A stretch of 64,000 bases of DNA from Candidatus Poribacteria bacterium (GTDB taxonomy: Bacteria > Poribacteria > WGA-4E > WGA-3G): assembly GCA_958295945.1 (NCBI GenBank), contig OY282386.1:2906204-2970203 (forward strand), given 5' to 3'. Each line of letters begins with the position of its first letter. Position 1 is the stretch's first letter. Below are positions 4,887 through 58,950 of the stretch, in pieces. The position numbers and the translations under genes were made by a program. The notes beneath the pieces are model-generated. The model did not search any database and was not told where the DNA came from. It worked only from the letters and a program-made list of their open reading frames with translations.

Positions 4887-7766
4887 ATGAAACGTTCTGT
4901 ATTTTTTATAATTGCGATTTGCTTCGGATTACTCGGTAATTTGATAGTTCAAGCACAGCAGACAACGCCTCTGGTAGGAACTGGCATACAACCAGAAATT
5001 AAACGAATGACTGCTAAACTGTCTGGAGAAGTAATCTGGAAAGGTTTTGACCTGTCTCATACTAACGTATCTGTGTATCGTGATGAAAAACTGAAAGACA
5101 TTTACACTAGTGGTGTATCAAAATTAGGCACTGGCACATTTACGCTCCGTGTGGAACCTGGACGGTACTATTTGGTCGCTTATGTGGATGTTGATGGTTC
5201 AGGGAAGTTTGATGAAGGTGATGGCTACGGTGTATTGGGTATAAAGAATTGGAGTGATGAGAATCAGACACATGTTGCCATCGAAGTGGGTACAAACACA
5301 GCAATAAAAGGAATACAGATACCGATAACAGCGAGACTTCAAGGCGTTGAAGAAACGCAGAAACTTGTACCTGCAGCTACATATAAACCGAGTAAATACC
5401 AACAATTCAAAACTGAACTCATTAAGGCAACATCTGGTCTACGCGGCACACTCAACTATTCGGGAGAAAGTGAAATTGCCGAAGAGCACAAGCTTGTTCT
5501 TGCCTATACAGATACATCATGGAAATATCGTGCTGGGATTGCTATTGTTAATGACAAGACAAACGAATGGGAACTCCGTTTGAAGCCTGGGAAATACTAT
5601 CTGATGGCGATTGTTGACAAAAATGGTAGCAACAAACTTGATGATGATGATATTTTCGGTTTTTATGGTCTTAAAGACATATACAAAAAAGGAGCATTTC
5701 CAGAACCTGTATTGGTTAAACCCAGTTCATTTGCTGAAGGTGTTGAAATACATCTAACTGCTACCTATAAAAAGGTAGACCTTACAGAAGCATCAGAAGT
5801 GACAGCGATCATATCAGGACGAGTTTTTCCAATACCACAAACAGCGACAGATGTCCGGATTGAAGTTTATGATAATTCTGCCTTTGTAAAACCCCTCGCG
5901 ACAACGGTTACCAATCCTGATGGCACATATCGTCTTCAACTTCCACCTGGAGAATACTACATCATTGCTAATCACGATGCTGATGGAGACGGTAGATATA
6001 GCAAAGGAGATAGGTTGGGTGGATTAGGAACTGAGTCAATCACTACAGAACAACCTGCTGCAGTCGCATTTGATGCAGGCGAAACAAACGATATCAATAT
6101 CCGATTAAGCGCACAGTATGATGCAGACGGTCAACTTGTTGCTAACAACAATCCGAATATAACACCTTCTGTCGTCGATTTGGGTGCGAATCCATCTCCA
6201 GGTGTTCCACAAGAAGTAAAAATGGGGAGTATTACAGGGAAAGTGACTTCGTTCTTTGCATCGCGAAATGATAAATCCAAGAATGACAACGGTTCATCAG
6301 ATGAGGAGATACCTGTTCCTGATGGTATTCTGAGTCTTTCTACGACACCTGATTTCAGTTCTCCTATGGTGGTTCCACTCATACTTGATGAAGATGGAAA
6401 CTACCTTGTTGATGTTGAATCCGGTAGATACTTTATCCTTGCTGTAGTAGACCAAAATAGGGATGGTGCATCAGGTTTGTCTGATGGTATTGGTGTTTAT
6501 GGGACACATCAACCGGTACGTGGCACACCTGCTCCCGTTTCTGTTTTAGAGGGTAAGACCACGCCACATGTTGATATTGATATTATGGCATCTTATGTGG
6601 ATGAGGCAGGAACGATGTCTGAAATTGAAGATGGTGGACGGTGGAATATTGCGCGTATGCATGGTGAACCGGAGGATATATTCAAATATACACAACAGGG
6701 CAAACAGATTGAAGAGTGGATGTATTGGACAAAAGGTATTGGATTTAAATTTGTAGCGGAAGGTGCTGGCTGGAAATTAAATGATCAGGAAGAGTTTGAA
6801 CCAAACATACAGAATATAAGTAAAGAAACAAAAACACCTGATGGGGTAAAACAAGATGGTGCTAATGAAACAATAGTAAATAAGCCTGATAAAGTAGAAT
6901 TAAGTAAGTTTTCTTTGACTGCAGCATCTGTTTCAATCTTCTACAGTCATGATGGGGTATTATGGCGTATTGCCCCAACAACAGCAGAAGATTTAAAACT
7001 AAACGTTTTTCGTGATATGCCCGTGGATTCACGTGTAGCACCACTTGGAGCAGGTCATCGTCCCTCTGTATCTGTGAATGGAACGCTTGTCTACCATGAT
7101 TTTGATAACAATGTTATTCTTAGAGACATTAAAACTGGAAAAAGCACGGTTTATTTTGATGGACGTGCTCTCGCAGAAGATGTGAAGATTTCACCTGATG
7201 GGGAACATATAGCATTTTCACGGAACGAAGGGAACGATAGAAAGAGGATTGTCATTCAAAATATACGTAATGAGAATATATTCCTTGTCCCTTCAACAGC
7301 GAGAGAAATGACGCATCCTGCTTGGAGCATAGATGGTCAATTCCTTGCATATTCTACTGCTGGTTCAATTGAGAATCCTGCTGCAGATACAAATCGGAAC
7401 ATCTTTCTATTCAATCAAGGAACAAACAGTGTTGAACCAATTGTCATTTCCCCAGCAGATGATGCGGAACCCTCCTGGCATCCTACTGACAGAAATACAC
7501 TTGTGTTTTCCAGAGGCACTGATGGAAGCGTCCGTCAGATATGGGTGGTCAATTATTCGTCTACCGGTGAACGGACAGAACAACAGATAACTGAAATGGG
7601 TGGGAATCGTCCCGTATGGGTGCCACCGAATGGACGTTGGATTGTTTATGAAAACAATGGGCAACTCTGGACAGTGGACTATCAAAATCCAGGAAGTGAA
7701 TTTCCGCTGTTGAGTAATGGAAAAGTTGTGTTTGGGTATCAACCTGTTGCAGTTTCTGTTGAGTGA
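4887..7766 (+). CDS. Secreted 959-aa multidomain protein: signal peptide, four carboxypeptidase-regulatory-like/DUF2141-like beta-sandwich repeats, C-terminal TolB-like PD40 beta-propeller
   Basis: The N-terminus MKRSVFFIIAICFGLLGNLIVQAQQ is a signal peptide. The motif PG(R/K/E)YY(L/I)xA..D.(D/N)G(S/D)G(K/R).D.GD..G..G recurs four times, for example LPPGEYYIIANHDADGDGRYSKGD. The C-terminus carries SPDGEHIAFS..., PAWSIDGQFLAY... and PSWHPTDRNTLVFS... PD40-type blades. Confidence 0.6.
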   Translation: MKRSVFFIIAICFGLLGNLIVQAQQTTPLVGTGIQPEIKRMTAKLSGEVIWKGFDLSHTNVSVYRDEKLKDIYTSGVSKLGTGTFTLRVEPGRYYLVAYVDVDGSGKFDEGDGYGVLGIKNWSDENQTHVAIEVGTNTAIKGIQIPITARLQGVEETQKLVPAATYKPSKYQQFKTELIKATSGLRGTLNYSGESEIAEEHKLVLAYTDTSWKYRAGIAIVNDKTNEWELRLKPGKYYLMAIVDKNGSNKLDDDDIFGFYGLKDIYKKGAFPEPVLVKPSSFAEGVEIHLTATYKKVDLTEASEVTAIISGRVFPIPQTATDVRIEVYDNSAFVKPLATTVTNPDGTYRLQLPPGEYYIIANHDADGDGRYSKGDRLGGLGTESITTEQPAAVAFDAGETNDINIRLSAQYDADGQLVANNNPNITPSVVDLGANPSPGVPQEVKMGSITGKVTSFFASRNDKSKNDNGSSDEEIPVPDGILSLSTTPDFSSPMVVPLILDEDGNYLVDVESGRYFILAVVDQNRDGASGLSDGIGVYGTHQPVRGTPAPVSVLEGKTTPHVDIDIMASYVDEAGTMSEIEDGGRWNIARMHGEPEDIFKYTQQGKQIEEWMYWTKGIGFKFVAEGAGWKLNDQEEFEPNIQNISKETKTPDGVKQDGANETIVNKPDKVELSKFSLTAASVSIFYSHDGVLWRIAPTTAEDLKLNVFRDMPVDSRVAPLGAGHRPSVSVNGTLVYHDFDNNVILRDIKTGKSTVYFDGRALAEDVKISPDGEHIAFSRNEGNDRKRIVIQNIRNENIFLVPSTAREMTHPAWSIDGQFLAYSTAGSIENPAADTNRNIFLFNQGTNSVEPIVISPADDAEPSWHPTDRNTLVFSRGTDGSVRQIWVVNYSSTGERTEQQITEMGGNRPVWVPPNGRWIVYENNGQLWTVDYQNPGSEFPLLSNGKVVFGYQPVAVSVE

Positions 7767-7830
7767 TAAGTGTTTGTTGTATGGGATTGTTTTTACCTCA
7801 GATTCTAACTATTTTACCTATAACTCCTGA

Positions 7831-8301
7831 ATGAAAAGGACATACAATATGAGTAGAAACAGACGTAGAAAAATCATTATAGGACATTTACCTTCAGACA
7901 TCAACCAGTCAAGCAATGACATTTTATCTCAAAAGATATTTGAACAGATAGATGATCTACTCACTAATGAATACGACTGGGATGAAATTGGTTATGAGAA
8001 ACCACGTCCGGAAGATATTGATAAGGCAAAAAATGTTATGTCCAATTTTATTTCATCAATAAATTCGGCAGGATATTCATTGTTTTCATTAGAAACACCG
8101 TCTATTTCCAATGGTGAAAATGGTGGTGCAACTATAGAGTGGCGCGAAAATGGAAGGAGTCTATATTTTGACATCAACCATCAAAGTATAAAGTTTACGA
8201 AGGTGTGGACAGAAGGCAAGAATACAATAGTGAGAACTAAGAAACTTCACAAGAGTGATTATGTGAAAGTATGGGAATGGATATTAAATGAACGATCCTG
8301 A
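7831..8301 (+). CDS. Hypothetical protein (156 aa), first gene of an AT-rich three-ORF islet
   Basis: The ATG is preceded by a purine-rich stretch and the ORF overlaps the next ORF by 14 nt (ATGAACGATCCTGA). No recognisable domain. Confidence 0.45.
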   Translation: MKRTYNMSRNRRRKIIIGHLPSDINQSSNDILSQKIFEQIDDLLTNEYDWDEIGYEKPRPEDIDKAKNVMSNFISSINSAGYSLFSLETPSISNGENGGATIEWRENGRSLYFDINHQSIKFTKVWTEGKNTIVRTKKLHKSDYVKVWEWILNERS

Positions 8302-8515
8302 ACATATAGAAAATGATGAAGAACTCTATAGAAGGTTTGAATCAAATGAGTTTAACACTAAAACTCCTCCTCAATATATTGTAAAAGCATCTGGTGATAT
8401 CAAGTTTCAATCTGCAGCATTTCTCGGTGGAGAAAGACCGTCTGTAGATAGGTCAAAACTTAGGTTTAAGCCAGAAGAAACAAAAAAAATGACTCTGATG
8501 GTATTCTTAGTGTGA
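8288..8515 (+). CDS. Hypothetical protein (75 aa); probably the 5' part of a single gene continued in the -1 frame (8512..8724)
   Basis: ORF ends 23 nt after an A8 run (8482-8489). The -1 frame is open from 8470 onward and continues to 8724. Confidence 0.4.
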   Translation: MNDPEHIENDEELYRRFESNEFNTKTPPQYIVKASGDIKFQSAAFLGGERPSVDRSKLRFKPEETKKMTLMVFLV

Positions 8516-8724
8516 TTACTGAAGATGTTAGGTCTATATCTATACAAGACTTTTCTGTTGATGTAAAATATGAACCGATTAACGATAACAAAGCACATTC
8601 GGAGATTATCATAATTCCAAATCTTGACGGTATATCAAAGAGTAGGAAAAAAGGGGCACTCTCAGATCTCAGAAGAGGTTTAGCAGAAATTGCAGTGTGT
8701 GAAATTAAACCTAATCCGGTATGA
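8512..8724 (+). CDS. Hypothetical protein (70 aa, GTG start as given); probably the 3' part of the 8288 gene reached by a -1 shift at A_AAA_AAA
   Basis: It overlaps the 8288 ORF's stop codon by 4 nt and its frame is open back to 8470. The slippery heptamer lies at 8482-8488. Confidence 0.4.
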   Translation: MITEDVRSISIQDFSVDVKYEPINDNKAHSEIIIIPNLDGISKSRKKGALSDLRRGLAEIAVCEIKPNPV

Positions 8725-8945
8725 TAGTAATTGGACAAACTCAATTGAGAAACAACAAGGTAACATTCCATATACAAATTAGAATGTTACCTTTTTTATT
8801 GTCAAAAAAAAGAAAATACAATAAAATTATAGAAATAAAATGATGAATGTGTCAAAACTACTTATTACAATCGCAGCTTCAGTTCATGATGTCCTTATAC
8901 CAAATTAACGAGATTTTTCCTGTTTTCGATGCCGAGAACACGGGC

Positions 8946-8969
8946 GGGCAGGGGAACCCTGCCCCTACG
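8946..8969 (-). repeat. REP-like element copy 2: stem gggcaggg/ccctgccc, GAA loop, then CTACG
   Basis: Same architecture as copy 1, with compensatory stem substitutions (CGAG->CAGG paired with CTCG->CCTG). It lies 48 nt upstream of the secreted-protein gene at 9017. Confidence 0.55.
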
Positions 8970-9016
8970 ATTTAGGTTAATTTGGTATTATACTTGATAT
9001 AGCGAGGTACAACTAT

Positions 9017-10330
9017 ATGTATAGCTTAAAAAGATTTCTCCAATTAATGTTAATGATGGTTTTCTTTATGCTGCTTCTTACAACAGCATCAGCACAATAT
9101 CTTCTCATCCCAATGGATAATGTGCAGACAAACCACCTGAAAGCCTATGGATTGACCTATTGGGCATTGGAAGTGCCGCGGGAATACAGTTGTTACTGGT
9201 GGCTGAACTATCGTGGTGGATCGTTTGTTACTCCTGATGCTGCGGATGTGAAACTACGAGCAGCACAGATGGGTGTTACTTTTGAAACGTTGAGTGCTGT
9301 TGAATATCAGACAATCAAAGAGAGCCTCATTGAAACAAGTAATATGGATGAGATATTACTTGAAAAAGCACCAAAGATTGCTGTGTATGCACCACCTGAA
9401 GCGTCTCCATTTCAAGATCCTTGGGACGATGCGGTGAAAATTGCTCTGGATTACGCTGAGATTTCTTATGACCAAATTTGGGACAATGAGGTGCAACGAG
9501 GTGCTCTACACACGGAAGGTTACGATTGGTTACATCTGCATCACGAAGATTTTACTGGACAGCACGGCAAATTTCACGGTTCATTTTCACACCAAGTATG
9601 GTATCAACAACGGATGGCACTATTTGAGAAAACTGCAAAAGAATCAGGTTTTAAAAGCGTATCACGCCATAAAGGGCAAACTGCACTGGACATTGCAGAT
9701 TATGTAGCAAAAGGTGGATTTATATTTGCCATGTGTTCTGCCCCTGAAACGCTGGATATTGCCTTAGCATCAAAGGGTGGTACGCTTGATATTGTTGATC
9801 CTGTGTTAGATGCTACACCGCTTGCTCAGGATTTTCAAAAGAAATTGGACTTTGAACACACATTTGCATTTGAGAATTTTACACTCTATCCAAACCCGAA
9901 CAAATATGAATTTTCTGATATTGATAATCCGAATCCTGATATGAGTCCACACACGGGGGTTGAGGATTTCAAACTCTTTGAATTTTCTGCGAAACATGAT
10001 CCGATACCAACAATGTTGACACAAAACCACGTCTCAGAAGTGCCGGGTTTCCTTGGACAAACAACATCATTTAATAAGAACACGATAAACCGATCAGTCA
10101 CGATTTTAGCCAATATTGAAGGCACAAACTATGTCAAATATGTTCATGGCACATTGGGAAAGGGTACATTTACATTTCTCGGTGGACATGACCCAGAGGA
10201 TTACCGCCATCTTGTCGGTGAAGGAAAGATACCAACCAATCTTGACCTGCATAAGCATTCACCCGGTTATCGGTTGATATTAAACAATATCCTGTTCCCT
10301 GCCGCTCGTAAAAAACCACAGAAAACCTAA
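9017..10330 (+). CDS. Secreted hypothetical protein (437 aa), possibly with a class-I glutamine amidotransferase/DJ-1-like fold
   Basis: The N-terminus has a signal-peptide-like hydrophobic stretch (MMVFFMLLLTTASAQ). An internal GGFIFAMCSAPETLD carries a candidate nucleophile cysteine. Assignment is weak. Confidence 0.4.
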   Translation: MYSLKRFLQLMLMMVFFMLLLTTASAQYLLIPMDNVQTNHLKAYGLTYWALEVPREYSCYWWLNYRGGSFVTPDAADVKLRAAQMGVTFETLSAVEYQTIKESLIETSNMDEILLEKAPKIAVYAPPEASPFQDPWDDAVKIALDYAEISYDQIWDNEVQRGALHTEGYDWLHLHHEDFTGQHGKFHGSFSHQVWYQQRMALFEKTAKESGFKSVSRHKGQTALDIADYVAKGGFIFAMCSAPETLDIALASKGGTLDIVDPVLDATPLAQDFQKKLDFEHTFAFENFTLYPNPNKYEFSDIDNPNPDMSPHTGVEDFKLFEFSAKHDPIPTMLTQNHVSEVPGFLGQTTSFNKNTINRSVTILANIEGTNYVKYVHGTLGKGTFTFLGGHDPEDYRHLVGEGKIPTNLDLHKHSPGYRLILNNILFPAARKKPQKT

Positions 10331-10404
10331 TAGCCGTCAGTATTCAGTTTCAGTCAAGAATCCTCTTTTTAAAGAATCCTGAAAACTAATAACTGACAAC
10401 TATA

Positions 10405-12516
10405 ATGAATATGAAAGCAACACTCGCAACCTGCAACTTGAATCAGTGGTCACTTGATTTTGAGGGTAACTGTGAACGTATCATTGAGTCAATTGAACGT
10501 GCGAAAGCAATAGGTGCTCGCTACCGACTCGGTCCTGAACTGGAAATCTCAGGTTATTCTTGTGAAGACCATTTTTTGGAGGAAGACACGTTACGGCATA
10601 GTTGGGAAACGCTTGCACAAATCATAATCGGTGGTCATACTGATGGTATCTTGTGCGACATAGGTATGCCTGTGATGCACAAAAGTGTACGTTATAATTG
10701 CAGAGTATTTGTCTGTGATGGTAAAATACTACTCATCCGTCCCAAAAAGACACTCGCTGCTGAAGGGAACTACAGAGAACCGCGTTGGTTTGCAGCTTGG
10801 CAGAAGGGATGGACAACCGAACCGTATCAGTTACCACCTGAAATCCGTGAAATCATTTCACAGTCGTCAGTGCCGATAGGATGTGCAGTCATCGTGACTA
10901 ATGATACAATCTTAGCTTCTGAGACCTGTGAAGAACTATTCGCGCCGCATTCACCCCATATTGACCTTGCTGCAAACGGTGTTGAAATTATTGCTAATGG
11001 GTCAGGTTCACATCACGAACTACGCAAGCTTGATACGCGTTTATCTCTGATATGCAATGCTACTGATAAATGCGGAGGGATTTACCTATACGCAAATCAA
11101 CAAGGGTGTGATGGAGGTAGACTTTACTTTGATGGATGTGCCTCCATTGCTCAGAATGGACACATTCTTGCACAGGGATCACAATTTTCTATAAGCGATG
11201 TTGAAGTGGTTTCAGCAACTGTTAATCTCTCAGATGTGCGGTCATATCGTGGTTCAAGAATGAGTGGTGCGGTACAGGCAAGTCAAAGTGTTTCAATTCC
11301 ACAAATAAATGTTGATTTTTCGGTGACCGATAGTAAAATACAAAGTGTTACCATACCGAAGGTTGATCCCAACATACATACACCTGAAGAGGAGATCGCA
11401 CTTGGTCCTGCCTGTTGGCTATGGGATTATCTTAGACGATCTGAAGCTGGAGGATATTTTGTGCCACTATCAGGTGGATCGGATAGCGGTGCAGTTGCGA
11501 CTCTTGTCGGGTCTATGTGTCAACTGGTTGCAAAATCAATTTTATCTGATGTACAACATGTAATAAGTGATGTTGAACGATTGCTTGGTAAAGATTGTGT
11601 AAGAACTATCAAGACAAAGTATAAGGACCCTTTTCTTGCTTCACAGCATCTTGCGCATCAACTTCTATATACTTGTTATATGGGAACTGTAAACAGTTCT
11701 CGTGAAACGCAGCAACGTTCAAAGCAGTTGGCAAGTGAGATCGGCAGCTATCATCTAAACATCAATATAGATACGCTTGTAAATGCGCTGCAAAAGTTAT
11801 TCACTGGTATCACTGGTAAAACACCTCAGTTCAAGACTGAAGGTGGCAGCACTGTTGAGAATCAAGCATTACAAAACATACAGGCACGACTGCGGATGGT
11901 CATCAGTTATCTATTTGCACAGACCTTGCCGTGGGTTCGCAATAAGCGTGGCACGCTTCTCGTCTTAGGTACTGGTAATGTTGACGAAGCATTGCGTGGG
12001 TATCTCACAAAATACGATTGCAGCAGTGCAGACATCAATCCGATAGGTAGTATCAGTAAAACGGATCTTCGTAGTTTTCTAAGATGGGCACAGAAGAATC
12101 TCGGGTATCCAAGCCTTGGTGATATATTGGAAGCACCACCGACAGCTGAGCTGGAACCAATTACGGAGACCTATACGCAAACAGATGAAGATGATATGGG
12201 TATGACTTATGCGGAGTTGAGTCGTTTCGGTCAGTTACGGAAAGTGCATCGGTGTGGACCTGTCAGTATGTTTGAAAAACTTGCTCAGGAATGGAATCAT
12301 CTTCCGCCAGACGAAGTGGCAGAAAAGGTGAAAAAGTTCTTCCGGTATTATGCGATTAATCGGCACAAGATGACAACTCTAACCCCTTCATACCATGCAG
12401 AACCGTACTCACCAGAAGATAACCGATTTGACCTTCGTCAGTTTCTATACAACACACGTTGGAGTTGGCAATTTAAGAAGATAGATAGGATGTGCGAGGA
12501 GATGCAAGACGAATGA
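10405..12516 (+). CDS. nadE: Glutamine-dependent NAD(+) synthetase (N-terminal nitrilase/CN-hydrolase domain plus C-terminal NAD synthetase domain), long eukaryote-like form (703 aa)
   Basis: The N-terminal carbon-nitrogen hydrolase region contains ...[13 protein letters not shown].... The PP-loop [13 protein letters not shown] sits in the C-terminal synthetase domain. The length matches the Qns1/NADSYN1-type. Confidence 0.8.
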
Positions 12517-14156
12517 TAACCCTTAATTCTTCAGTTGTATATAGGAAATTAAGCGTTCTTCTTTTCTCTATTTTCTTATTCTTGCTATCTGTCTTGCTAT
12601 CAGTATACGCTACTCCAAATATTCCAAATAACTTTGATGGTTGGGTGATTGACACGTTGTATAAACTTGAGGTTTCTGGTGTTACAGGTGGTTTTCATCG
12701 GCACACATTGCCGCTTTCGCGTGAGGATGTCGCAATGATTGTCCGAACTGCAGATAAACGTGTCCAATCTGGAGATGTCACTATATCTGACATAGACAGA
12801 AAACTCTTAGAAAAACTCAAACGAGAATTCTACAATGAGTTAGTCCAGAAAAATCCCAAAGCTTCACAAAAAACTGTACTACAAAGAACAGCCTTAATTA
12901 TTGAACCCGAATTACGTATGGCTAATGAGGAGATTGCACCTGCGCTTCAAAGTGGACTGCATTTCGTTATTGGTAAAGATAGTCACAGATTGAACATATA
13001 TTCTGAATTGGAAATATCCAATTTTGAACAGCGACAAGATTTTTTAGAAAGTTATTATCTACCGGTTCCACCACCCCTTTTGAAATCTGCAGACCAACGG
13101 TATGAGAAATGGTATTGGGATTATGTAGTTGACTTCAAACGAAGTTATGTTGAATACAATCTCTCATTCTCCGAAAATGCGAAGATAAATCTACTCTTTG
13201 GAAGAGATTCTGTTTATTGGGGTGCGAGTCCTATCAAGTCTGTCGGAATATCTGATAACTCCCCACCGTTTGAACTTGTCCGTCTCACTGGAACAATCCC
13301 TTGTAAGATCGGCACACTCAAAGCAACTGCGTTTTCAGCACAACTCAATTCAACATGGTATGATGACAGCACTACACGTTACCTTGCGAAACGCTATCTT
13401 AGCGCGCATCGGGTGGACTATCAATTTAGTGATTGGCTTGAAATAGGTGTATCGGAATGGGTGCTTTATGGTGGAGATGTGGAGTCAGTCAGATGGTACT
13501 ATCTCAATCCTATAATCCCATATTATGCGGTGCAATATAATGCAAAGAATGACGACAATTTGATGCTGAGTTTTGATTGCGCAGTGCGACCGATTGATGG
13601 TGTACGTTTATATGCAGAGTGGCTTGCCGATGATTTTCAGTACCAATCCGATTCCAATGACCCGCATGCGGTAACCTGGCTTACTGGTGTGGAGTGGTAT
13701 CCAAAGTTTGCAGACCGACAACTCGGTTTTCTCACAGAATATGTGCGTGTCAATCGTTGGACATATACACATCTGGAACCTGATAACCAGTTCACACACT
13801 TCGGCACAATGATTGGACATCCGATAGGCACGGATGCTGATTTACTCACGTTTCGTGCGTCTTATCATGCAACACCTTCTGCAGTCTTTGAGGGGAGTCT
13901 TAGCCATCAACGAAACGGTGAAGCAGACATTACTGATCGGTTTTACGGTGAAGATTTTGAGAACATACCTTTTCCATCTGGAATAGTTGAACGGTTAACT
14001 GAATTTCGACTTGGTTGGAAATATAGTCCGATAAATGGGGTTAAAGGTACTATCAACTACGCATGGCGGCATATTCAAAACAGAGAACACGTTGAAGATG
14101 ATACTGATCAACAACACCGATTTGTTTTTATGATTGCTTATGCATGGGGAAACTAA
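12492..14156 (+). CDS. Outer-membrane protein, capsule-assembly Wzi-like (tentative); true start probably downstream of 12492
   Basis: Hydrophobic N-terminus. [16 protein letters not shown]...[11 protein letters not shown] resembles the Wzi N-terminal helical region, and [18 protein letters not shown] resembles the Wzi WWGPG region. The ORF overlaps nadE by 25 nt, so the start is uncertain. Confidence 0.4.
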
Positions 14157-16259: not shown

Positions 16260-16480
16260 ACAATTTCTCCCAATTTTCTTATGAGGGTTTTACACAACTA
16301 ATGATTTGATCAGGCTGCACGATAACCCTCTGCATCGCGCATTTTGCTATCAACTTTCATCTATGATAACAATTTGCAAAAAAATAATCAAGAATATTGT
16401 CTTTTGTGGGGTGTGTGTAAAGTATTTGTCACATCATCCCATTATAGTAGATTTTGAAAGGACTTGAACACTCTGCATCA

Positions 16481-16506
16481 GCGAGGTTAGAAAACCTCGC
16501 CTACCG
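16481..16506 (-). repeat. REP-like element copy 3: stem gcgaggtt/aacctcgc, AGAA loop, then CTACCG
   Basis: Same stem-loop-plus-CTAC(C)G architecture in the 340-bp gap between the SBP and ATPase genes. Confidence 0.5.
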
Positions 16507-18196: not shown

Positions 18197-19369
18197 TCAT
18201 CTTTTTGCAAAGCATTTGCGATATAACGCGATGATTTCTTCTTGAGTTGTTTGTCTTGGATTGTTGGCTGGACTTCCACTTGCAATTGCATCCGCAGCCA
18301 TTTGCTCCACAACTTTTTCAAACCTCTCTTCATCAATACCGATTTGTCCGAGACGCGGCATATCAATATCGATGACAAGTCGTTCAACAGCAGTAATCGC
18401 AGCATCTGCTTGTTTCATTAGCGATAATCCGTCTATCTGTTCACCCATTGCTTCTGCTATGTCAGCGAACCGTTGCGGAGCACCGACAACACTAAACTCC
18501 ATTACATCAAGCAACAGCACTGAATTTGATAAACCGTGATGAATGTGAAAATATGCACCTATGGGTCGGGACATGCCGTGCACTAACGCAACAGACGAAT
18601 TGCTGAATGCCATGCCTGCGATAGATGCACCGATCATCATATCTGTTCGTGCTGAGATGTTCTCTCCATCAGACCATGCTTGACGAAGTGAACTTGAAAT
18701 CAGTCTTATTGCTTTCAATGCAAGTGTGTCGGTTATCGGTTGTGAGTGCTTTGAGACATACGCCTCAATTGCGTGCGTCAAGGCATCAACACCGACAGCT
18801 GCGGTCAGATGGGGTGGTGTTGTGAGTGATAGCGTTGGATCTACTATGGCAATAGAAGCCAGTAGACAAGCACTGCTCAGCATCATTTTAACGTTGCGTT
18901 CTGTGTCTGTTATAACGGTTACTTTGGATACTTCGCTACCTGTTCCTGCAGTGGTTGGTATTGCAATTAGCGGGGTACCCTGATTTGGGATTTTGTCTAT
19001 ACCCATGTAATCTGTGAATTCTCCATCATTTGTGAGTTTGACAGAGATACCTTTGCCGCAGTCAATCGCGCTGCCGCCTCCGATACTCACAATTAAATCG
19101 CAGTTTTCGTCAGCAAATTGGTTTACCCCATCTGTAACATTTTGTAATGTCGGATCGGGGGTTACATCTGCGAAAATAGTGGAGATTATGCCAGAGTTGT
19201 ATAAGTTTTTGGCTATTTGGTCAGCATACCCAAGTTTTTGGATTCCTGGATCTGTGACAATGAGTGCTTTGGTTGCACCGAGCCGTTTTGCTTGTTCACC
19301 AACTTTTTCGGATGCACCTGCACCGGTGATTATTGTGGAAGGGAGTGAGAATGTGGTAGGCAATTTCAT
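18197..19369 (-). CDS. Iron-containing (group III) alcohol dehydrogenase
   Basis: GGGSAIDCGK and the metal-binding His cluster (...HGMSRPIGAYFHIHHG...) match the Fe-ADH family; 390 aa. Confidence 0.8.
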   Translation of the reverse strand: MKLPTTFSLPSTIITGAGASEKVGEQAKRLGATKALIVTDPGIQKLGYADQIAKNLYNSGIISTIFADVTPDPTLQNVTDGVNQFADENCDLIVSIGGGSAIDCGKGISVKLTNDGEFTDYMGIDKIPNQGTPLIAIPTTAGTGSEVSKVTVITDTERNVKMMLSSACLLASIAIVDPTLSLTTPPHLTAAVGVDALTHAIEAYVSKHSQPITDTLALKAIRLISSSLRQAWSDGENISARTDMMIGASIAGMAFSNSSVALVHGMSRPIGAYFHIHHGLSNSVLLLDVMEFSVVGAPQRFADIAEAMGEQIDGLSLMKQADAAITAVERLVIDIDMPRLGQIGIDEERFEKVVEQMAADAIASGSPANNPRQTTQEEIIALYRKCFAKR

Positions 19370-19466
19370 TTTCCAAATTTAAGTATTTCAAACAGAATTT
19401 CTAATGTTTTATTACTAACTTGAATCTTTATATTGATAGCGTTTTCAGGTATGATCAATACCATAC

Positions 19467-19798
19467 CTATCGTAACGTGAGTTTGATATAAAGGTTAGAA
19501 AAACCGATACAATATATAACATTTATCACAGATTTGATGACGGGCATGTTCTGGCATTCCAGTGGAGTGCTATGTCTATAGAAAATCCAAACACAAAGTT
19601 CTTGCACTCCAGCGGAGTGCTATGTGTGATAATCTCACATACCGCTCCGCTGGAGCGGAAACACTGGTTCGGATGAATACTATAAACATATTGCTCCGCT
19701 GGAGCAAAGAAGGTGTTTGGGTTACGTTGGAACTGCTTTAGTTTAATTGAATTCCCCTGATGAACCAATCTCTTATATTCGAACTCACGTTATCGTAG
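19467..19798. mobile_element. MITE-like structured element (~330 bp) with 21-bp imperfect terminal inverted repeats and internal direct and inverted repeats of a CTCC-N3-GGAG core
   Basis: TIRs are 19467-19487 (ctatcgtaacgtgagtttgat) and 19778-19798 (ttcgaactcacgttatcgtag), matching 16/21 in reverse complement. Internal 27-bp direct repeats lie at 19554-19580 and 19604-19630 (22/27). Inverted copies (ctccgctggag) lie at 19645-19655 and 19694-19704. The element is non-coding. Confidence 0.4.
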
Positions 19799-19836
19799 AT
19801 TTGTACCATTTATGAGGGAAACTATCCTCTATAAAG

Positions 19837-20589
19837 TCATTTCGTTGTGATATAGTATCCCCAACCTTCATCTGTCTCTTCTATCTCAACTGTGATACCT
19901 AAATCTCGAAGTTCTCCTATAGGTATACCTTGTTCAAAGGCATTATAACCACCATTTGCTTTCATCCACTTAAAAAACACAAGAGTGCGATGTGTAGATC
20001 CGGATGGAAATAAGGTATACGTTGCTTCCAATCCAGCAATTTCCTCATCTATTGTCATTGGAGGATTTCGCATATACTCCATGTAAGTATGTACTTCTGG
20101 AATATCTCCAAACCTTTCAAGGAGTTGGTTATACTGTGCACTATGAAGTTCATCTGGATCCATCGTTTCTGGATCGCCAATCCACGTACCGCGCGCTTTT
20201 GTATCCATTTCGGCATCAATAGTATCATGCCATGGATTCCTTTGAAGAGAGTGTTCATTTGTGAGCACGTCGTTCTGCGATTCTTGTTCTGTCCATTCTT
20301 CATTTGCTTTATTGTCTTTTTCCTTTAACAGATCTGAACCTTCGTGATGAATTGATGAATCAGATTCATCAGCAGATTTCAGATCACCTGGATTCTTAAC
20401 AATATCTTTTACATTTTGATCTGATGGTCTTGTGTTTGTATTCTCTTGATTTTCAGCAGGCAGTAACTCCGTGAGTTTGTCTGTAGAGTCGAGTGTGTGG
20501 AAGTTTGTTGAGAGGTAAAGTGGGACAAGAATGACAATAAACGGGATGAGAAAAATCAGTTTTTTCATACTGGTTTCTCCATTGGACAA
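19837..20589 (-). CDS. Secreted acidic hypothetical protein (250 aa)
   Basis: Signal peptide MKKLIFLIPFIVILVPLYLS (probable start at the internal MKK). No recognisable domain. Confidence 0.5.
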   Translation of the reverse strand: MSNGETSMKKLIFLIPFIVILVPLYLSTNFHTLDSTDKLTELLPAENQENTNTRPSDQNVKDIVKNPGDLKSADESDSSIHHEGSDLLKEKDNKANEEWTEQESQNDVLTNEHSLQRNPWHDTIDAEMDTKARGTWIGDPETMDPDELHSAQYNQLLERFGDIPEVHTYMEYMRNPPMTIDEEIAGLEATYTLFPSGSTHRTLVFFKWMKANGGYNAFEQGIPIGELRDLGITVEIEETDEGWGYYITTK

Positions 20590-20714
20590 TAGGTAGTCAA
20601 CTACTTGTATGACAAAAGTGGAGTAAAGGAAACTCCGTTCGTAATATCTATAAACGAATCTTGATATGATTATAGCATATTGCTCTCATCAAATCAAGGT
20701 TTTATAGTTTCAAT

Positions 20715-20781
20715 CCTAATGCCGGAAATGGCGGATACCTGTCAATACCATTGCCATACCGTAAGCGTCCGCAGTTTCAAT
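20715..20781 (-). repeat. 67-bp duplicate (66/67 identical) of the 3' end of purH (last 21 codons plus stop), a candidate attR-like remnant
   Basis: cctaatgccggaaatggcggatacctgtcaataccattgccataccGtaagcgtccgcagtttcaat differs from 23575-23641 at one base. The native copy encodes ...IETADAYGMAMVLTGIRHFRH*. Confidence 0.7.
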
Positions 20782-20871
20782 GAAAGATAACCTAATATGT
20801 TATATCCTTATGTTGCATGTATAAAATAAAATCAATTAGGATTTTTGAGTAGGGATCGGCTTCCAAATGTA

Positions 20872-21186
20872 CTAAGTGTCCAAAGGCACACGACAGATAC
20901 CGATCAAATCAAGTCCTCGGTTAAGTTGTTTCTCAGTAATCTGAAAATCAGAGACTGTGATAGCATACATCACATCACGACTGGTAATGCTTATGAAAGA
21001 CTTTAACAACTGACCTCCTACATCAAAACTAAATTGTAATAACCGCTTAGGAAGCCGTTGTCGCAGATTCAGGATATCCCACTTAAAAATATTTCGAATG
21101 TGGTGTTCGCGTATGTCTTGAAATTGATGTACTTTTGAATTACCTTGAAGCGCGTAAAGTGTTACGTCTTTAAAACTCGTCAACAA
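20872..21186 (-). CDS. Hypothetical protein or gene fragment (104 aa from a TTG start; frame open to ~21222 without an ATG)
   Basis: ORF only; no canonical start. The upstream in-frame extension ...WPYHEREYTADEFREF... suggests a truncated gene. Confidence 0.3.
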   Translation of the reverse strand: MLTSFKDVTLYALQGNSKVHQFQDIREHHIRNIFKWDILNLRQRLPKRLLQFSFDVGGQLLKSFISITSRDVMYAITVSDFQITEKQLNRGLDLIGICRVPLDT

Positions 21187-21280
21187 AAACTCTCGGAATT
21201 CATCAGCGGTGTATTCGCGTTCATGGTAGGGCCACTGAAAACCAGTTGCACGTCATAAGATGTACATGTTTTTCATAAAG

Positions 21281-22921
21281 TTACTCCTTCTGTGAGTCAT
21301 CAGCGTTTGAAGGCTGTGAACGTTTTGGTGGCGGCACCTTTTGCGGATTTCTGCGGAAATACTCAGCCAGTTCTGGATCATCCTTTGCGAGTCTTCGCAA
21401 TCCCTCTTTTGGTCCGTGGTTCTGCAAAATTTGCTTCGCCTTGTTGAACCGTTCTGGAGTTAGCGGTTTTGGCGTGATTTTTTCACGGAGTGCATCCTCA
21501 AGACTTGCCTCAGTTGGAAGTCCGGGTAGCAGTTGTTGGCGTAGTTGTTTTTCAAGTTCGGTAGCAATTTCTGCATCGGACATAGTTGCGAATTTTTCAA
21601 GTTGTCGGACCTCCCGCATGAACTGTTCAAATTCGGGTTGCCGTCCGACTTCTTCTACATGTCGTTCGAATTCTTCTCTGGCGCGTTCGAATTCTTCTCT
21701 TTCACGTTGTTTTTGAAAATCCAATTCGGTATCTGTGTTTTCTGGTGGAAGAAATTCCTCAAAGTCGTCAGAATCTGGTATAGGCGCATCTTTGTCCCAC
21801 CATTCTTCGGGAGGTGGGTTTTCACCTTCTGCCAACATCTTACGGAACTCTTCTCGTTTAAATGGAGGAGGTTTCTCCTCAAGGGTCTTTCCCATTTCAT
21901 CAAGATATATAATTTCAATTCCTTCCGGTTCAATCCCTCTAAAGAGGAGGCCAAACTGTTGTTCTCTGGTGAGGGATGCTCCAATGTAACTCACACGGTA
22001 ATCGGATTTGCGCTGCACGTAGGTCATTTTCCTACCTACATAAAAGGGCAGTTCCGTTTCGTTATTAGATCCGGCAAGCCCCAGAAAATGAATACGTTCA
22101 TCTGCACGCCGAGCATTATGAAAACGTTGCTTATAATCAATTTCTTTTTCAAGATGAGCAGTTTTAAGTGCCTCTATATCAGACGCAGGAATTCCCAGGC
22201 CTCTTGAACGCATTTCCCGGAACTGTAGGTCATTTTCAATGGTAATTAAGTCCCCTCTGATCCTCATATACTCTGAATATTCGGCTGCATTTTGTATGGT
22301 AAGACCTCTATCAAGAATCGATTGGAGCCACTGTTGGGGAGGGTATATTCTATCAATCTCGCTAGATAACTTGCCTTTGTTGTAGTTGGTGTGAAACGCA
22401 TCCATTAGTGCTTCAACGGTTTGGGGACCGGTATGTTTTTTGCCGACTGTATCATAAGCTGGTGTATCATCATAAGCTGGTGTATCGGTGATATCCACCT
22501 TGACATCAGATTCAGACACCAATGGTGGTGTATCGGATTTCTTTTTTTCCTTTTCTGCAGCAGCTATAGCGATGGATCGGACTTGTTTACGGAGCTCAAC
22601 AAGTTCTTCATCGGTGAGCGTCCAATGTTTTTTTGCTGCTGCATCTATGAATTTTTTCATTGCGACATCTATCTGTTTTTCTATCCAAACATCCCAAGGA
22701 TCCGTATCATCCGCGAGATGTTTTGAAATTTCCTTGCGGTTGGTTGAGGCATGGTCCGTGGAATCCTCCCATGATTTTTCACTAATGACAGAATTTTCTG
22801 TCTTAGATTGAGTGAAGAGATAGATTCCTACAATAAGAATCAAACAACCTATTAATCCGCCGAGAAAAAACTTGTTAGAAAAAAGTTTCATTTTGTTATC
22901 TCCTTGTTTAAGATTCTTCAA
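21281..22921 (-). CDS. Membrane-anchored, highly charged low-complexity protein (546 aa) with internal short repeats
   Basis: N-terminal TM segment (FFLGGLIGCLILIVGIYLF). Repeats TDTPAYDDTPAYDT and REEFERAREEFERHV. The C-terminal half is E/R/K-rich and looks coiled-coil or disordered. Confidence 0.55.
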   Translation of the reverse strand: MKNLKQGDNKMKLFSNKFFLGGLIGCLILIVGIYLFTQSKTENSVISEKSWEDSTDHASTNRKEISKHLADDTDPWDVWIEKQIDVAMKKFIDAAAKKHWTLTDEELVELRKQVRSIAIAAAEKEKKKSDTPPLVSESDVKVDITDTPAYDDTPAYDTVGKKHTGPQTVEALMDAFHTNYNKGKLSSEIDRIYPPQQWLQSILDRGLTIQNAAEYSEYMRIRGDLITIENDLQFREMRSRGLGIPASDIEALKTAHLEKEIDYKQRFHNARRADERIHFLGLAGSNNETELPFYVGRKMTYVQRKSDYRVSYIGASLTREQQFGLLFRGIEPEGIEIIYLDEMGKTLEEKPPPFKREEFRKMLAEGENPPPEEWWDKDAPIPDSDDFEEFLPPENTDTELDFQKQREREEFERAREEFERHVEEVGRQPEFEQFMREVRQLEKFATMSDAEIATELEKQLRQQLLPGLPTEASLEDALREKITPKPLTPERFNKAKQILQNHGPKEGLRRLAKDDPELAEYFRRNPQKVPPPKRSQPSNADDSQKE

Positions 22922-23118
22922 GTTAGTGCACTAATGTATAAGACACATGCTAACACGTCTTCGGTTTAAGAACAACAATATCTGTGCCATGTCCTTCCGG
23001 ATGTAAAAACCCCACCTGCAACAAAAAAAGTCCAAACGAAACGCACACCCAAAGACAGCGCGATCGTGAAGACTCCAGATATAGATTTGTAATATGAAAA
23101 AATTAGTGGATTTTCGCT

Positions 23119-23130
23119 GGGGGGGGGGGG
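23119..23130. repeat. Homopolymeric G12 tract in an AT-rich non-coding stretch
   Basis: ttttcgctgggggggggggcacgg read directly. It lies ~200 bp upstream (minus-strand sense) of the 546-aa gene start. Confidence 0.8.
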
Positions 23131-23574
23131 CACGGACAACCAAGAGCATATATTGCCCTTGAGCAAATTCTTTCTCAAATAATAAGTACTTAGGATCGAT
23201 TTTTTCTTAATTATTGTGGTACTCAAGTGTTTATTATTCATTTTTAAATCCCACTCCACTTATTGAGTTATAGTATCATAACACAAATTCCGGTAAATGT
23301 CAAATTTATTTAAAAAAATTCGTAAAATTTCTTAGTTTTTCACTGTCTCCCTGCCATCACAAAGACGGTGAAGATGCAAGACCGATTGTCGCACCCATCA
23401 CCATAACTTTTCAATCGGTAGTTTTCCAATGTGTCGATCTCGTTTGAAAGTTTCCCTGACCAATTCGAGAGTGAAATACCGAGATTACCAGAAGTCCACT
23501 CATCCGGTTGATACTCACGCCGTGCTAAACTCCAGCGCGGTATCATATCAGAATAGTCCCTGTAATCTTCAAAC

Positions 23575-25158
23575 CTAATGCCGGAAATGGCGGATACCTG
23601 TCAATACCATTGCCATACCATAAGCGTCCGCAGTTTCTATCACCAAGTCATCATTTACAGAGCCACCGGGTTGGATGATTGCACGGATGCCTGCTTCACC
23701 GGCAATCTCCACGCCATCAGGGAATGGGAAGAAAGCATCAGAAGCTAAGACAGAATCTTTTGCCTTTTCTCCTGCTTTACGAACAGCGATAATCGCAGCA
23801 TCTACACGACTCATCTGCCCCGCACCGATTCCTACTGTTTGTGTCCCTTGCGCAAGTAGAATACAGTTGGATTTGACATGCTTGCATGCTTTCCATGCAA
23901 ATAACAAGGATTCTATCTCTTCGTGCGTGGGTTTACGTTTTGAGACAACTTGTAAATCACTTCTAACAATGTGATGTACATCTTGTTCTTGAACAAGCAC
24001 ACCGCCACTGACATTACGTATTTGCATAGGATTTGTTACTGTAGACGGAGTGTGGCTACTACTATTCAAAGGTCCTGTTTCAAGTATTCTACGGTTTTCC
24101 ACGCGGGACAATGCATACAATGCTTTATCAGTGTAACTCGGAGCGATAATTGCTTCTATTTTCACTCCAGATTTTGCTGCTTCGCGTATCGTATTCGCTG
24201 TTTGAATGGTAACTTTACGGTTTAAGCCTACAATTGAACCGAATGCAGAAGTTTTGTCACATTCAAGTGCGTTTGTAAATGCATCTTGGAGGTTTTCAGC
24301 ACTTGCAAGTCCACACGGATTGTTGTGTTTGATGATGGCACATGCAGGTGTTTTGAAGTCCTTCACTATTTCTAAGGCAGCATCCAAATCGAGGATGTTA
24401 TTGAAAGATAAGGGCGAACCATTCAGTTGTTTTGCCCAAGCAGCGCACGGACCGGGTTTTGTATCAGTTCTGTAAAATGCAGCACTCTGATGTGGATTCT
24501 CACCATATCTCAACGAATCTGCTTTATGATATTGTAGTGAAAGTGTATTACTGAATTCATCGTTATTATCTAAATTGGCAAGATAGGTAGAAATTGCTCT
24601 GTCGTAATGTGCGGTGTGGAGGAAGGCTTTTTTTGCTAACTCAAAGCGTAACTCGTCGGAGAGACATCCATCGTTAATATCTAAATCAGAAATAATCTGT
24701 GCATACTGGTTAGAGTCAGTTAGGACTGCAACTTGCTGATAGTTCTTGGCTGCGGCGCGAATCATTGTTGGTCCGCCGATGTCTATATTTTCAATGGCAT
24801 CTTCAAGGGTGACATCAGGTTTGGCAACTGTTTCCTCAAATGGATAGAGGTTGCAAATCACCATGTCAATGGGTTTTATGCCGTTTTCTTCTGCTTGTGC
24901 TGCATGTTCAGCATTATCCCATTGTGCAAGCAAGCCGCCATGGACTTTAGGGTGAAGTGTCTTAACTCTCCCATCTAACATCTCTGGAAAGCCAGTGTAT
25001 TCAGAGACATCAATAATCTCTATACCTGTTTCACGAAGATGTTTAGCAGTGCCGCCAGTGGAAAGTATTTCAACCTTATGTTGTACGAGTGCATTTGCAA
25101 TGTCAATTAGGTCAGTCTTATCATAAGTACTGATGAGCGCGCGTTGAATCTTTTTCAT
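23575..25158 (-). CDS. purH: Bifunctional AICAR transformylase / IMP cyclohydrolase
   Basis: The N-terminal MGS-like IMP cyclohydrolase domain begins MKKIQRALISTYDKTDL...LSTGGTAKHL. The AICARFT domain follows. The C-terminus GMAMVLTGIRHFRH is the conserved PurH end. Confidence 0.9.
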   Translation of the reverse strand: MKKIQRALISTYDKTDLIDIANALVQHKVEILSTGGTAKHLRETGIEIIDVSEYTGFPEMLDGRVKTLHPKVHGGLLAQWDNAEHAAQAEENGIKPIDMVICNLYPFEETVAKPDVTLEDAIENIDIGGPTMIRAAAKNYQQVAVLTDSNQYAQIISDLDINDGCLSDELRFELAKKAFLHTAHYDRAISTYLANLDNNDEFSNTLSLQYHKADSLRYGENPHQSAAFYRTDTKPGPCAAWAKQLNGSPLSFNNILDLDAALEIVKDFKTPACAIIKHNNPCGLASAENLQDAFTNALECDKTSAFGSIVGLNRKVTIQTANTIREAAKSGVKIEAIIAPSYTDKALYALSRVENRRILETGPLNSSSHTPSTVTNPMQIRNVSGGVLVQEQDVHHIVRSDLQVVSKRKPTHEEIESLLFAWKACKHVKSNCILLAQGTQTVGIGAGQMSRVDAAIIAVRKAGEKAKDSVLASDAFFPFPDGVEIAGEAGIRAIIQPGGSVNDDLVIETADAYGMAMVLTGIRHFRH

Positions 25159-57244: not shown

Positions 57245-57368
57245 CTAATTTTTTTAACAGCAAAAAGCCGTCTTCCGTTTTCGGTATAGAACATGCCGGT
57301 AGTTATATTAACTGCCTTAACAGTACCAAAAAGAAGCGGCTCAGTTCCTCAAAGGTTGAGGCACAATT

Positions 57369-57457
57369 CATTTTGTTTTTCCCTACGCTGGCATGACCCA
57401 GATCAGGTTCAATGGGTGTTTTCTCAGCTCCTATACGTATAAGAGCACCCCATAATG
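57369..57457 (-). ncRNA. TPP (THI-element) riboswitch aptamer
   Basis: The minus-strand RNA reads CAUUAUGGGGUGCUCUUAUACGUAUAGGAGCUGAGAAAACACCCAUUGAACCUGAUCUGGGUCAUGCCAGCGUAGGGAAAAACAAAAUG. It contains the hallmark GGGGUGC...CUGAGA and ACCUGAUCUGG.UAAUGCCAGCGUAGGGAA elements. A hairpin plus U-run follows before the permease start at 57244. Confidence 0.85.
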
Positions 57458-57521
57458 TCATTTCAATACTATTGTATCATAATTTCATAATCTCTGCAAT
57501 ACATTAAGAATCAACTCATTT

Positions 57522-58526: not shown

Positions 58527-58950
58527 TTGAATTCCTTAAATATTAGGTTTTGGATAACCGATAATATCATAACTTTGCACAATTTACAAGAGAATTGAGA
58601 CCTATGGGTATGTCAGTTTTTTTGCATGCATATTGTATCTGTCTTGTTGAAGGAGTGAAGTGCCATCGATTTTTTAGACCATAATTTCGTAAAGTTAAGA
58701 CAAGTTTTTTTGTTCAAATTCAATAGGAGTTAAATAACCTAATGCCGAATGAGGTCGTTTCTGGTTGGACACTTGTTCAATAAAATGTCCAATGGTAGAC
58801 GAGATCTCCGAACCTCGCAGATGCTGAATGTTCAAGTAATTTCAAAATCTACTATAACTTTACATACAAACACAATTTCTCTTGATAAATCTTTCTAATA
58901 TTGATAAACTAACAATATAAATGTGTTTAAATGACAAGGAGGACGTAAAG

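Follow-up and report, generated by a model that had tools for sequence, protein, structure and literature searches.

Results

A bounded element with four hairpins lies upstream of the Fe-ADH gene

The stretch of Candidatus Poribacteria DNA analyzed here (the window; 64,000 nt of contig OY282386.1) contains a Fe-alcohol-dehydrogenase (Fe-ADH) gene and a gene for a 243-aa protein (a length taken from database homologues), both on the minus strand and separated by a spacer of 467 bp (19370-19836). No exact-protein match to the window's ADH or to P0001 is on record. The spacer hosts the element considered below, which is located downstream of the 243-aa gene and upstream of the Fe-ADH gene. The features of the locus are listed in Table 1.

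Table 1. Features of the element and its flanking genes. Positions are those of the window; L numbers denote loci used for comparison.
Feature	Positions	Strand	Basis or remarks
Fe-alcohol-dehydrogenase gene	18197-19369	minus	Pfam Fe-ADH and ADH_Fe_C
243-aa gene (ORF)	19837-20589	minus	No Pfam or NCBIfam match
Left copy of 7-bp target-site duplication, TATCGTA	19468-19474		Identical heptamer at 19791-19797; single homologous heptamer in L118
Element proper (read as a MITE), 316 bp, no coding capacity	19475-19790		Sharp ends common to five copies, flanks unrelated; absent from L116-L119
Left terminal inverted repeat (TIR), ACGTGAGTTTGATATAAAGG	19475-19494	plus	Inverted-repeat search; conserved across copies
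REP-like unit u1, GCATTCC-AGT-GGAGTGC (one G.T pair) plus TATGT tag	19554-19575	plus	Repeats; hairpin-family match
REP-like unit u2, GCACTCC-AGC-GGAGTGC plus TATGT	19604-19625	plus	Direct doublet with u1, start to start 50 nt
REP-like unit u3, inverted, ACATA tag plus CCGCTCC-GCT-GGAGCGG	19637-19658	minus	Head to head with u2, 11 nt between tags
REP-like unit u4, inverted, ACATA tag plus TTGCTCC-GCT-GGAGCAA	19686-19707	minus	Doublet with u3, 49 nt apart
Right TIR, reverse complement ACGTGAGTTCGAATATAAGAG	19770-19790	minus	Inverted-repeat search; conserved across copies
Right copy of 7-bp target-site duplication, TATCGTA	19791-19797		Alignment with empty site

From end to end, the element consists of a left TIR of 20 bp, a left arm of ~59 bp, a core of 154 bp, a right arm of ~62 bp, and a right TIR of 21 bp. 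In the core, units u1 and u2 face units u3 and u4, i.e., two hairpin doublets are directed inward. Each of the four palindromes is a hairpin with a 7-bp stem and a 3-nt loop, followed by TATGT, and the outer three stem pairs vary among the four yet stay complementary (GCA/TGC, CCG/CGG, and TTG/CAA). As measured by their CTCC-N3-GGAG cores, the palindromes are spaced by 50, 38, and 49 nt and precede the ADH start by 105-320 bp.

A first-pass annotation, made from the sequence alone, had described two direct repeats and two inverted copies in this region, and a repeat finder recovered both pairs: 19548-19575 and 19598-19625 (28 nt, 89% identical), and, in the opposite orientation, 19637-19656 and 19686-19705 (20 nt, 90% identical). 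The imperfect inverted repeats that were said to bound the region correspond to 25-nt arms at 19462-19486 and 19779-19803, which are 76% complementary. Four CTCC-N3-GGAG copies had been counted; three of them are exact, while the fourth is a variant, TTCC-AGT-GGAG. The three exact copies are the only ones in the 64-kb window, compared to 0.28 expected, and none of 100 shuffles reached this number. Folding yielded one long hairpin (z = -9.9 for the plus strand and -8.9 for the minus strand), as the first-pass annotation had proposed. BLAST of the element against the window revealed no second copy there, and the ORFs that overlap it, 43-80 aa in length, are chance ones only.

Related copies share sharp termini and abutting target-site duplications

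A pattern scan of one genome per species listed more than 115 loci, ~104 of them from Candidatus Poribacteria MAGs. Repeats, TIRs, and ORFs were counted in these listed loci (115 of them, 8 kb each, with ~0.9 Mb of Poribacteria DNA). Among the loci listed, BLAST revealed five copies with 92-97% identity over window 19467-19797 in one Poribacteria MAG, CAXXTN01 (L028, L029, L031, L039, and L043), which sit at different sites in unrelated contexts, and a sixth copy, 77% identical, in OX638351. When the copies were aligned, identity began at ACGTGAGTT and ended at AACTCACGT (ACGTGAG... / ...CTCACGT), while the flanks were unrelated. The limits originally drawn for the region, 19467 and 19798, are at most 1 base away from the outer edges of the target-site duplications set by this comparison, and the further copies with target-site duplications for which a search had been advised are present in CAXXTN01, a related Poribacteria MAG.

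The 12-mer terminus ACGTGAGTTYGA, with up to two mismatches allowed, bounds elements of ~140-490 bp in many Poribacteria MAGs. Exact 6-8-bp repeats abut 12 of 26 TIR pairs, as compared to ~2.4% expected from shuffled pairing of left and right flanks; the length of the target-site duplication thus varies among TIR pairs from 6 to 8 bp. The same TIRs also bound elements that contain no hairpins (140 and 375 bp in L033, 162 bp in L106, and 237 bp in L108), and these hairpin-free elements (140-375 bp) likewise carry duplications of 6-7 bp.

A search of the 115 listed loci (~0.9 Mb) for an autonomous element bounded by these TIRs was negative. Among the loci listed, TIR pairs located 0.5-4 kb apart provided no convincing autonomous candidate, and the ORFs adjoining orphan TIRs were all host genes. 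Clustering of ORFs revealed only one transposase common to several loci, that of an IS1595-family element, and it was rejected as a partner since its TIRs are unrelated to those of the MITE. This IS (DDE_Tnp_IS1595 and a zinc ribbon, ~300 aa; TIRs of 23-37 bp, CGGAATTAGTCGTTTTGGACTT) is carried by three Poribacteria MAGs (L046 6430-7589, L050 6352-7775, and L086 6604-7770). IS982-family elements have AC termini and AT-rich duplications of ~7 bp, a resemblance that we treat as a lead only. The subfamily-specific arm was looked for in JGI metagenomes as well, with 0 matches.

Some pattern matches were located in contigs labelled Flavobacterium, Sphingobacterium, Bacteroidales/Rikenellaceae, and Acidobacteriota (L008, L015, L034, L061, L077, L081, and L088). 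One of these, L015, has good hairpins plus a TIR-like end. Matches in contigs with non-Poribacteria labels could be due to chance, mis-binning, or the existence of related families.

Orthologous loci lack the element and include a precise empty site

Orthologous loci, reached via homologues of the 243-aa protein, have in common the gene order purH, 243-aa gene, Fe-ADH, ABC ATPase. The element is absent from all four of them (L116-L119), in each case upstream of an intact ADH orthologue. The spacer between the 243-aa gene and Fe-ADH is 94 bp long in L116, L117, and L119 and 151 bp long in L118. The L118 sequence aligns base for base with the window flanks, with a single CACGATT where the window, read as the reverse complement, has TACGATA, the 316-bp element, and TACGATA again. 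L118 is a precise empty site with one copy of the target heptamer. The 7-bp target duplication is thereby established, and the view of the region as a promoter or operator conserved at the ADH gene is refuted. According to the first-pass annotation, retention of the element in orthologous intergenic regions would have indicated a regulatory rather than a mobile sequence; none of the four regions retains it.

Several other differences were observed at these and related loci. About 57 nt of the host spacer (window ~19399-19455; on the minus strand, between CCTCATAAAT and GATTCAAG) are present in the window and in L118 and missing from L116, L117, and L119. This segment, which includes a small host-spacer hairpin, GGTATG-N8-CATACC (19448-19467), beside the MITE, is bounded by ATAAA repeats and is therefore a separate indel, unrelated to the MITE. 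At a more distant orthologous locus (L120 3861-4438), fragments of an IS3-family element (HTH_Tnp_1 and rve_3) follow a 254-aa gene at the place where ADH is expected. L092, which is syntenic with window 7532-12829, contains a four-hairpin element with one recognizable TIR (L092 4470-4751) just upstream of the orthologue of the window gene 9017-10330. This element is absent from the window (8302-9016), and the two loci represent a second presence/absence difference.

A segment of ~2.86 kb in the window (20705-23635) is absent from L116 and L117, where the 243-aa gene directly follows purH. It is flanked by a ~70-bp direct repeat of the purH 3′ end (23560-23635; copy at 20705-20780) and contains a 546-aa ORF (21281-22921, minus strand) with an N-terminal membrane anchor and a charged low-complexity body, for which no Pfam or NCBIfam match was found. 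The segment looks like an insertion at the purH 3′ end, with no recombinase evident. Elsewhere in the window, short intergenic repeats are located at 8897-8988 (80% identical to L108 4756-4846, with a GC-rich hairpin, GGGCAGGGG...CCCTGCCCC) and at 58656-58761 (79-84% identical to two L083 sites), and an inverted intergenic match with 84% identity connects 58794-58857 with 16442-16505. Rfam yielded a single match at gathering score for the window, a TPP riboswitch on the minus strand (57363-57462; RF00059, 70.9 bits).

The hairpins form a REP-like family linked to a Y1 transposase gene

Hairpin units of the form N3-CTCC-AGM-GGAG-N3′-TATGT were found 354-390 times across the ~0.9 Mb of Poribacteria loci listed; of 390 units, 380 are located outside any ORF of 120 aa or more. 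Their commonest arrangement is a direct doublet with units 49-50 nt apart and a total length of ~80 nt; tandem arrays of units with periods of 101-103 and 191 nt are also present. The conserved tag is the 3′ TATGT, which is often extended to TATGTCTATAGAAA, a sequence found after the first hairpin of the doublet.

When 113 distinct units were compared, five of the seven stem pairs were found to change on both sides. The covariation score was 0.400, compared to 0.164 in shuffles, and none of 500 shuffles scored as high. Stem pairing reached 90% in register versus 38-57% in slid registers. The orientation of the units relative to co-directional flanking genes showed no bias (87 same and 78 opposite), while 92 units were located between divergent genes compared to 22 between convergent ones. 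A strand-specific RNA signal was not found in the stems: the numbers of G.T pairs (26) and A.C pairs (16) revealed no significant strand asymmetry.

A Y1 transposase gene was approached by tblastn with approximate IS200, IS608, and RAYT sequences, a search that served as a lead only. It pointed to small ORFs in six loci from six MAGs (L009, L010, L022, L040, L105, and L108). Four of the genes are intact and encode conserved proteins of 157-159 aa that score 95-101 bits with Pfam Y1_Tnp; the L108 copy is frameshifted (59.7 bits), and the L105 copy was detected by tblastn alone. The Y1 protein passes the NCBIfam IS200/IS605 model NF033573 (79.7 bits, cut-off 55) and fails the curated RAYT model REP_Tyr_transpos (NCBIfam NF047646; 35.8 bits, cut-off 80). 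The nearest solved structures are those of ISDra2 and IS608 TnpA, and both the HUH motif (HIH) and the catalytic Tyr (YIENQ) have aligned counterparts in the structure of ISDra2 TnpA. E. coli TnpA-REP was not among the PDB matches at E <= 0.01.

Inward-facing hairpin units are present on both sides of the Y1 gene (-> -> gene <- <-) at all six loci and in 10 of 10 assemblies of one population. In most loci, there is a full doublet per side. None of the six Y1 loci has the ACGTGAG terminus. For one Y1 protein, P0077, all 10 places shown, of 24 contigs read from several samples, have one and the same neighbourhood, in which the Y1 gene adjoins a GT4 glycosyltransferase to one side and, to the other, a polysaccharide deacetylase and a methyltransferase; most Y1 homologue clusters sit on 1-4 contigs. 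This synteny is conserved within one species-level population and is not common to the six divergent MAGs. In two assemblies, L122 and L130 (2660-2745), there is one extra hairpin doublet (+166 bp) beside the Y1 gene compared to L123, L125-L129, and L131, which suggests ongoing gain or loss of doublets. In L124 (1-1210), a TnpB-type gene (OrfB_IS605, Cas12f1-like_TNB) occupies the place of the glycosyltransferase beside the Y1 locus.

In REP/RAYT systems, a single-copy Y1 gene is flanked by inverted copies of an extragenic palindrome (PMC2817692, PMC5581495). By analogy, the apparently single-copy Y1 gene described here, with its fixed locus and flanking inverted copies of an abundant extragenic palindrome, follows this pattern. 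The CTCC-N3-GGAG hairpins are a separate REP-like family that extends across the Poribacteria genomes sampled and is linked to the Y1 transposase gene.

The core and termini are conserved while the arms drift

The core of the window element reproduces the arrangement of the Y1-gene flanks, with 11 nt where the gene would be. In the sampled loci, there are 20 such head-to-head four-hairpin cores; 17 of them have a TIR within 260 bp, and 9 have TIRs on both sides. When the window element was compared to the L011/L059 subfamily, the TIRs were ~75-80% identical and the cores 79-81% identical, while the similarity of the arms was that expected by chance (0.56-0.57 versus 0.55-0.56 for shuffled sequences, and 0.48 versus 0.49). 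The first hairpin is located 84-91 nt from the element end in each divergent subfamily, and 84-86 nt from it in both the window element and the L011/L059 subfamily. Conservation of the core next to drifting arms is not accounted for if the hairpins are simple passengers. It could be due to element-level selection for the hairpins, homogenization against the REP population of the genome, or repeated insertion of REP doublets into MITEs.

A foldback origin of the element was also considered and rejected, since the arms are complementary to each other no more than by chance. The long-hairpin fold is therefore due to the TIRs and the core alone.

Discussion

Our results suggest, with a probability that we put at roughly 85%, that window 19475-19790 is a MITE of the TIR/duplication type that carries REP-type hairpins. 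The identity as a miniature inverted-repeat transposable element, one of three offered in the first-pass annotation, is upheld by near-identical copies, TIRs, the duplication, and empty orthologous sites. The whole 316-bp unit, both TIRs included, moved in one piece and produced a 7-bp duplication, recently enough for the copies to stay 92-97% identical. The MITE was presumably inserted by a DDE-type transposase supplied in trans, with the ACGTGAGTTYGA termini as its presumed binding sites and a stagger of 7 bp between its cuts; since no autonomous element was found among the loci listed, we infer this enzyme from the TIRs and duplications. Insertion would have stretched the spacer between the 243-aa gene and Fe-ADH from ~151 to 467 bp and put four stable hairpins between the two genes. 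The core may derive from, or be kept similar to, the Y1-linked REP/RAYT-type system, in which the Y1 enzyme would recognize the hairpins as single-stranded DNA.

The other two identities offered in the first-pass annotation were an operator array and a structured RNA. If the region were an operator array, a dimeric regulator of Fe-ADH, the gene downstream, would bind the four palindromes, and their regular spacing and position upstream of the ADH start are what such an array would have. Yet the element is missing upstream of the intact ADH orthologues in four related genomes and present in unrelated gene contexts, which refutes this reading. The outer stem bases also covary instead of keeping their sequence, and hundreds of units are scattered through the genomes; we give the operator array next to no credence. 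If the region were a gene for a structured noncoding RNA, or part of an mRNA that serves as its terminator or stabilizer, the hairpins would act at the RNA level. The strong predicted fold speaks for this reading, a U-rich tail behind one hairpin (19707-19691, minus strand) makes a terminator-like pattern, and stem covariation is compatible with RNA. We nevertheless consider it very unlikely, as Rfam 15 gave no match in 19300-19950 at gathering or permissive thresholds (best E-value of 2.4), the units have no orientation bias relative to neighbouring genes and are commoner between divergent than between convergent genes, the G.T and A.C pairs show no significant strand asymmetry, and the unit as a whole behaves as a transposon.

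It is also quite improbable that the Y1 (RAYT-like) transposase moves the element, as a REPIN-type unit, via the hairpins, with the TIRs being incidental. Such movement would be in line with the -> -> <- <- doublet arrangement that the core shares with the Y1-gene flanks, with the high repetition and stem covariation of the hairpins, and with the different number of doublets beside the Y1 gene among assemblies of one population. However, the near-identical copies all end at the TIRs, with 6-8-bp duplications of variable sequence, the same TIRs bound hairpin-free elements, and the Y1 loci are without such a TIR. Y1/HUH transposition, as in IS200/IS605 and RAYT, leaves no target duplication and requires no TIR.

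Under the preferred reading, that of a TIR-bounded MITE with REP-type hairpins, the TIRs and the core could be functionally coupled, making the element a hybrid that needs two enzymes for its spread or persistence. A cut-and-paste enzyme would then act on the ACGTGAGTTYGA ends and the putatively single-copy Y1 (RAYT-like) enzyme on the hairpin doublets, where it might, for instance, refresh or copy the core. A hint of such coupling comes from the fact that termini, core, and spacing are kept in divergent subfamilies while the arms drift, together with the 17 of 20 cores that adjoin a TIR. We hold the idea tentatively and rate it as rather unlikely. If true, the coupling would amount to a Poribacteria-wide REP/RAYT system with MITEs as vehicles, so far undescribed.

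For the annotation of the window, our results mean that the ~330-bp structured region is a recent transposon insertion; it is no conserved part of the ADH locus, either regulatory or RNA. More generally, two repeat systems are described in Candidatus Poribacteria, one of TIR-bounded MITEs with 7-bp duplications and another of REP-like hairpins tied to an IS200-like Y1 gene. REP/RAYT systems have been studied mostly in Proteobacteria, and the system presented here is a well-populated example in a distant phylum, with another tag and a doublet module. With REP copies embedded in classical MITEs, it lends itself to a natural test of the spread and persistence of such elements. In Poribacteria MAGs, the repeats can moreover serve as markers in practice, and they are a known hazard for assembly. 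A full-text literature search for MITEs, REPs, or RAYTs in Poribacteria found none reported, a result that is not proof of novelty.

Bacterial MITEs include Correia/NEMIS of Neisseria and MITEAba12 of Acinetobacter (PMC3184786, PMC6382973, PMC10969869). Like them, the window element is small (316 bp, with the usual size being less than ~600 bp) and noncoding, has TIRs and a target-site duplication (the latter seen against the empty site), is multicopy, with dispersed copies in the related MAG CAXXTN01, lies between genes, folds into a long hairpin, and differs in its presence among related genomes. It differs from them in that no cognate insertion sequence was found for it among the loci listed, and its ACGTGAGTTYGA termini and 7-bp AT-rich duplication match none of the families compared. 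Unlike in ordinary MITEs, the conserved core is a pair of REP-type hairpin doublets and not an IS remnant.

The second point of comparison is REP/BIME sequences, REPINs, and RAYT (TnpA-REP) transposases (PMC2817692, PMC3116915, PMC5581495, PMC8266576). As in REP and REPIN families, the Poribacteria hairpins are short extragenic palindromes with a conserved short tag, highly repeated and clustered; as in REP/RAYT systems, an apparently single-copy Y1/HUH gene is flanked by inverted hairpin copies; and, as in a REPIN, an inverted pair makes up the MITE core and gives rise to a long hairpin. In contrast to REPs, whose tag is a 5′ GTAG or CGTC (PMC3733652), the Poribacteria units are tagged by a 3′ TATGT, and their module is a direct doublet of units 49-50 nt apart, whereas a single REP is the basic module there. 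REPs have been described as lacking MITE signatures (PMC3184786), whereas the window unit has TIRs and a duplication. The Y1 protein also differs from RAYTs, since it passes the IS200 model and fails the REP_Tyr_transpos model, its sequence being closer to IS200.

The likeness to IS200/IS605 elements and the derivatives of these that have no gene (PATEs) is in the enzyme: the linked Y1 protein belongs to the same family by sequence, and its nearest structures are ISDra2 and IS608 TnpA. By analogy with IS200/IS605, the sub-terminal hairpins may be recognition elements. In IS200/IS605, the left-end and right-end hairpins are on the same strand and in the same orientation, and there are no TIRs and no duplications. 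Unlike in IS200/IS605 and PATEs, the hairpin doublets of the window element face each other, and TIRs and a duplication are present; unlike in IS200/IS605, the Poribacteria Y1 gene is apparently single-copy at a fixed locus (the 10 places shown). Overall, MITEs and REP/RAYT systems are both well known, and the window element is of an ordinary kind, an apparently undescribed chimeric variant of them in a little-studied phylum.
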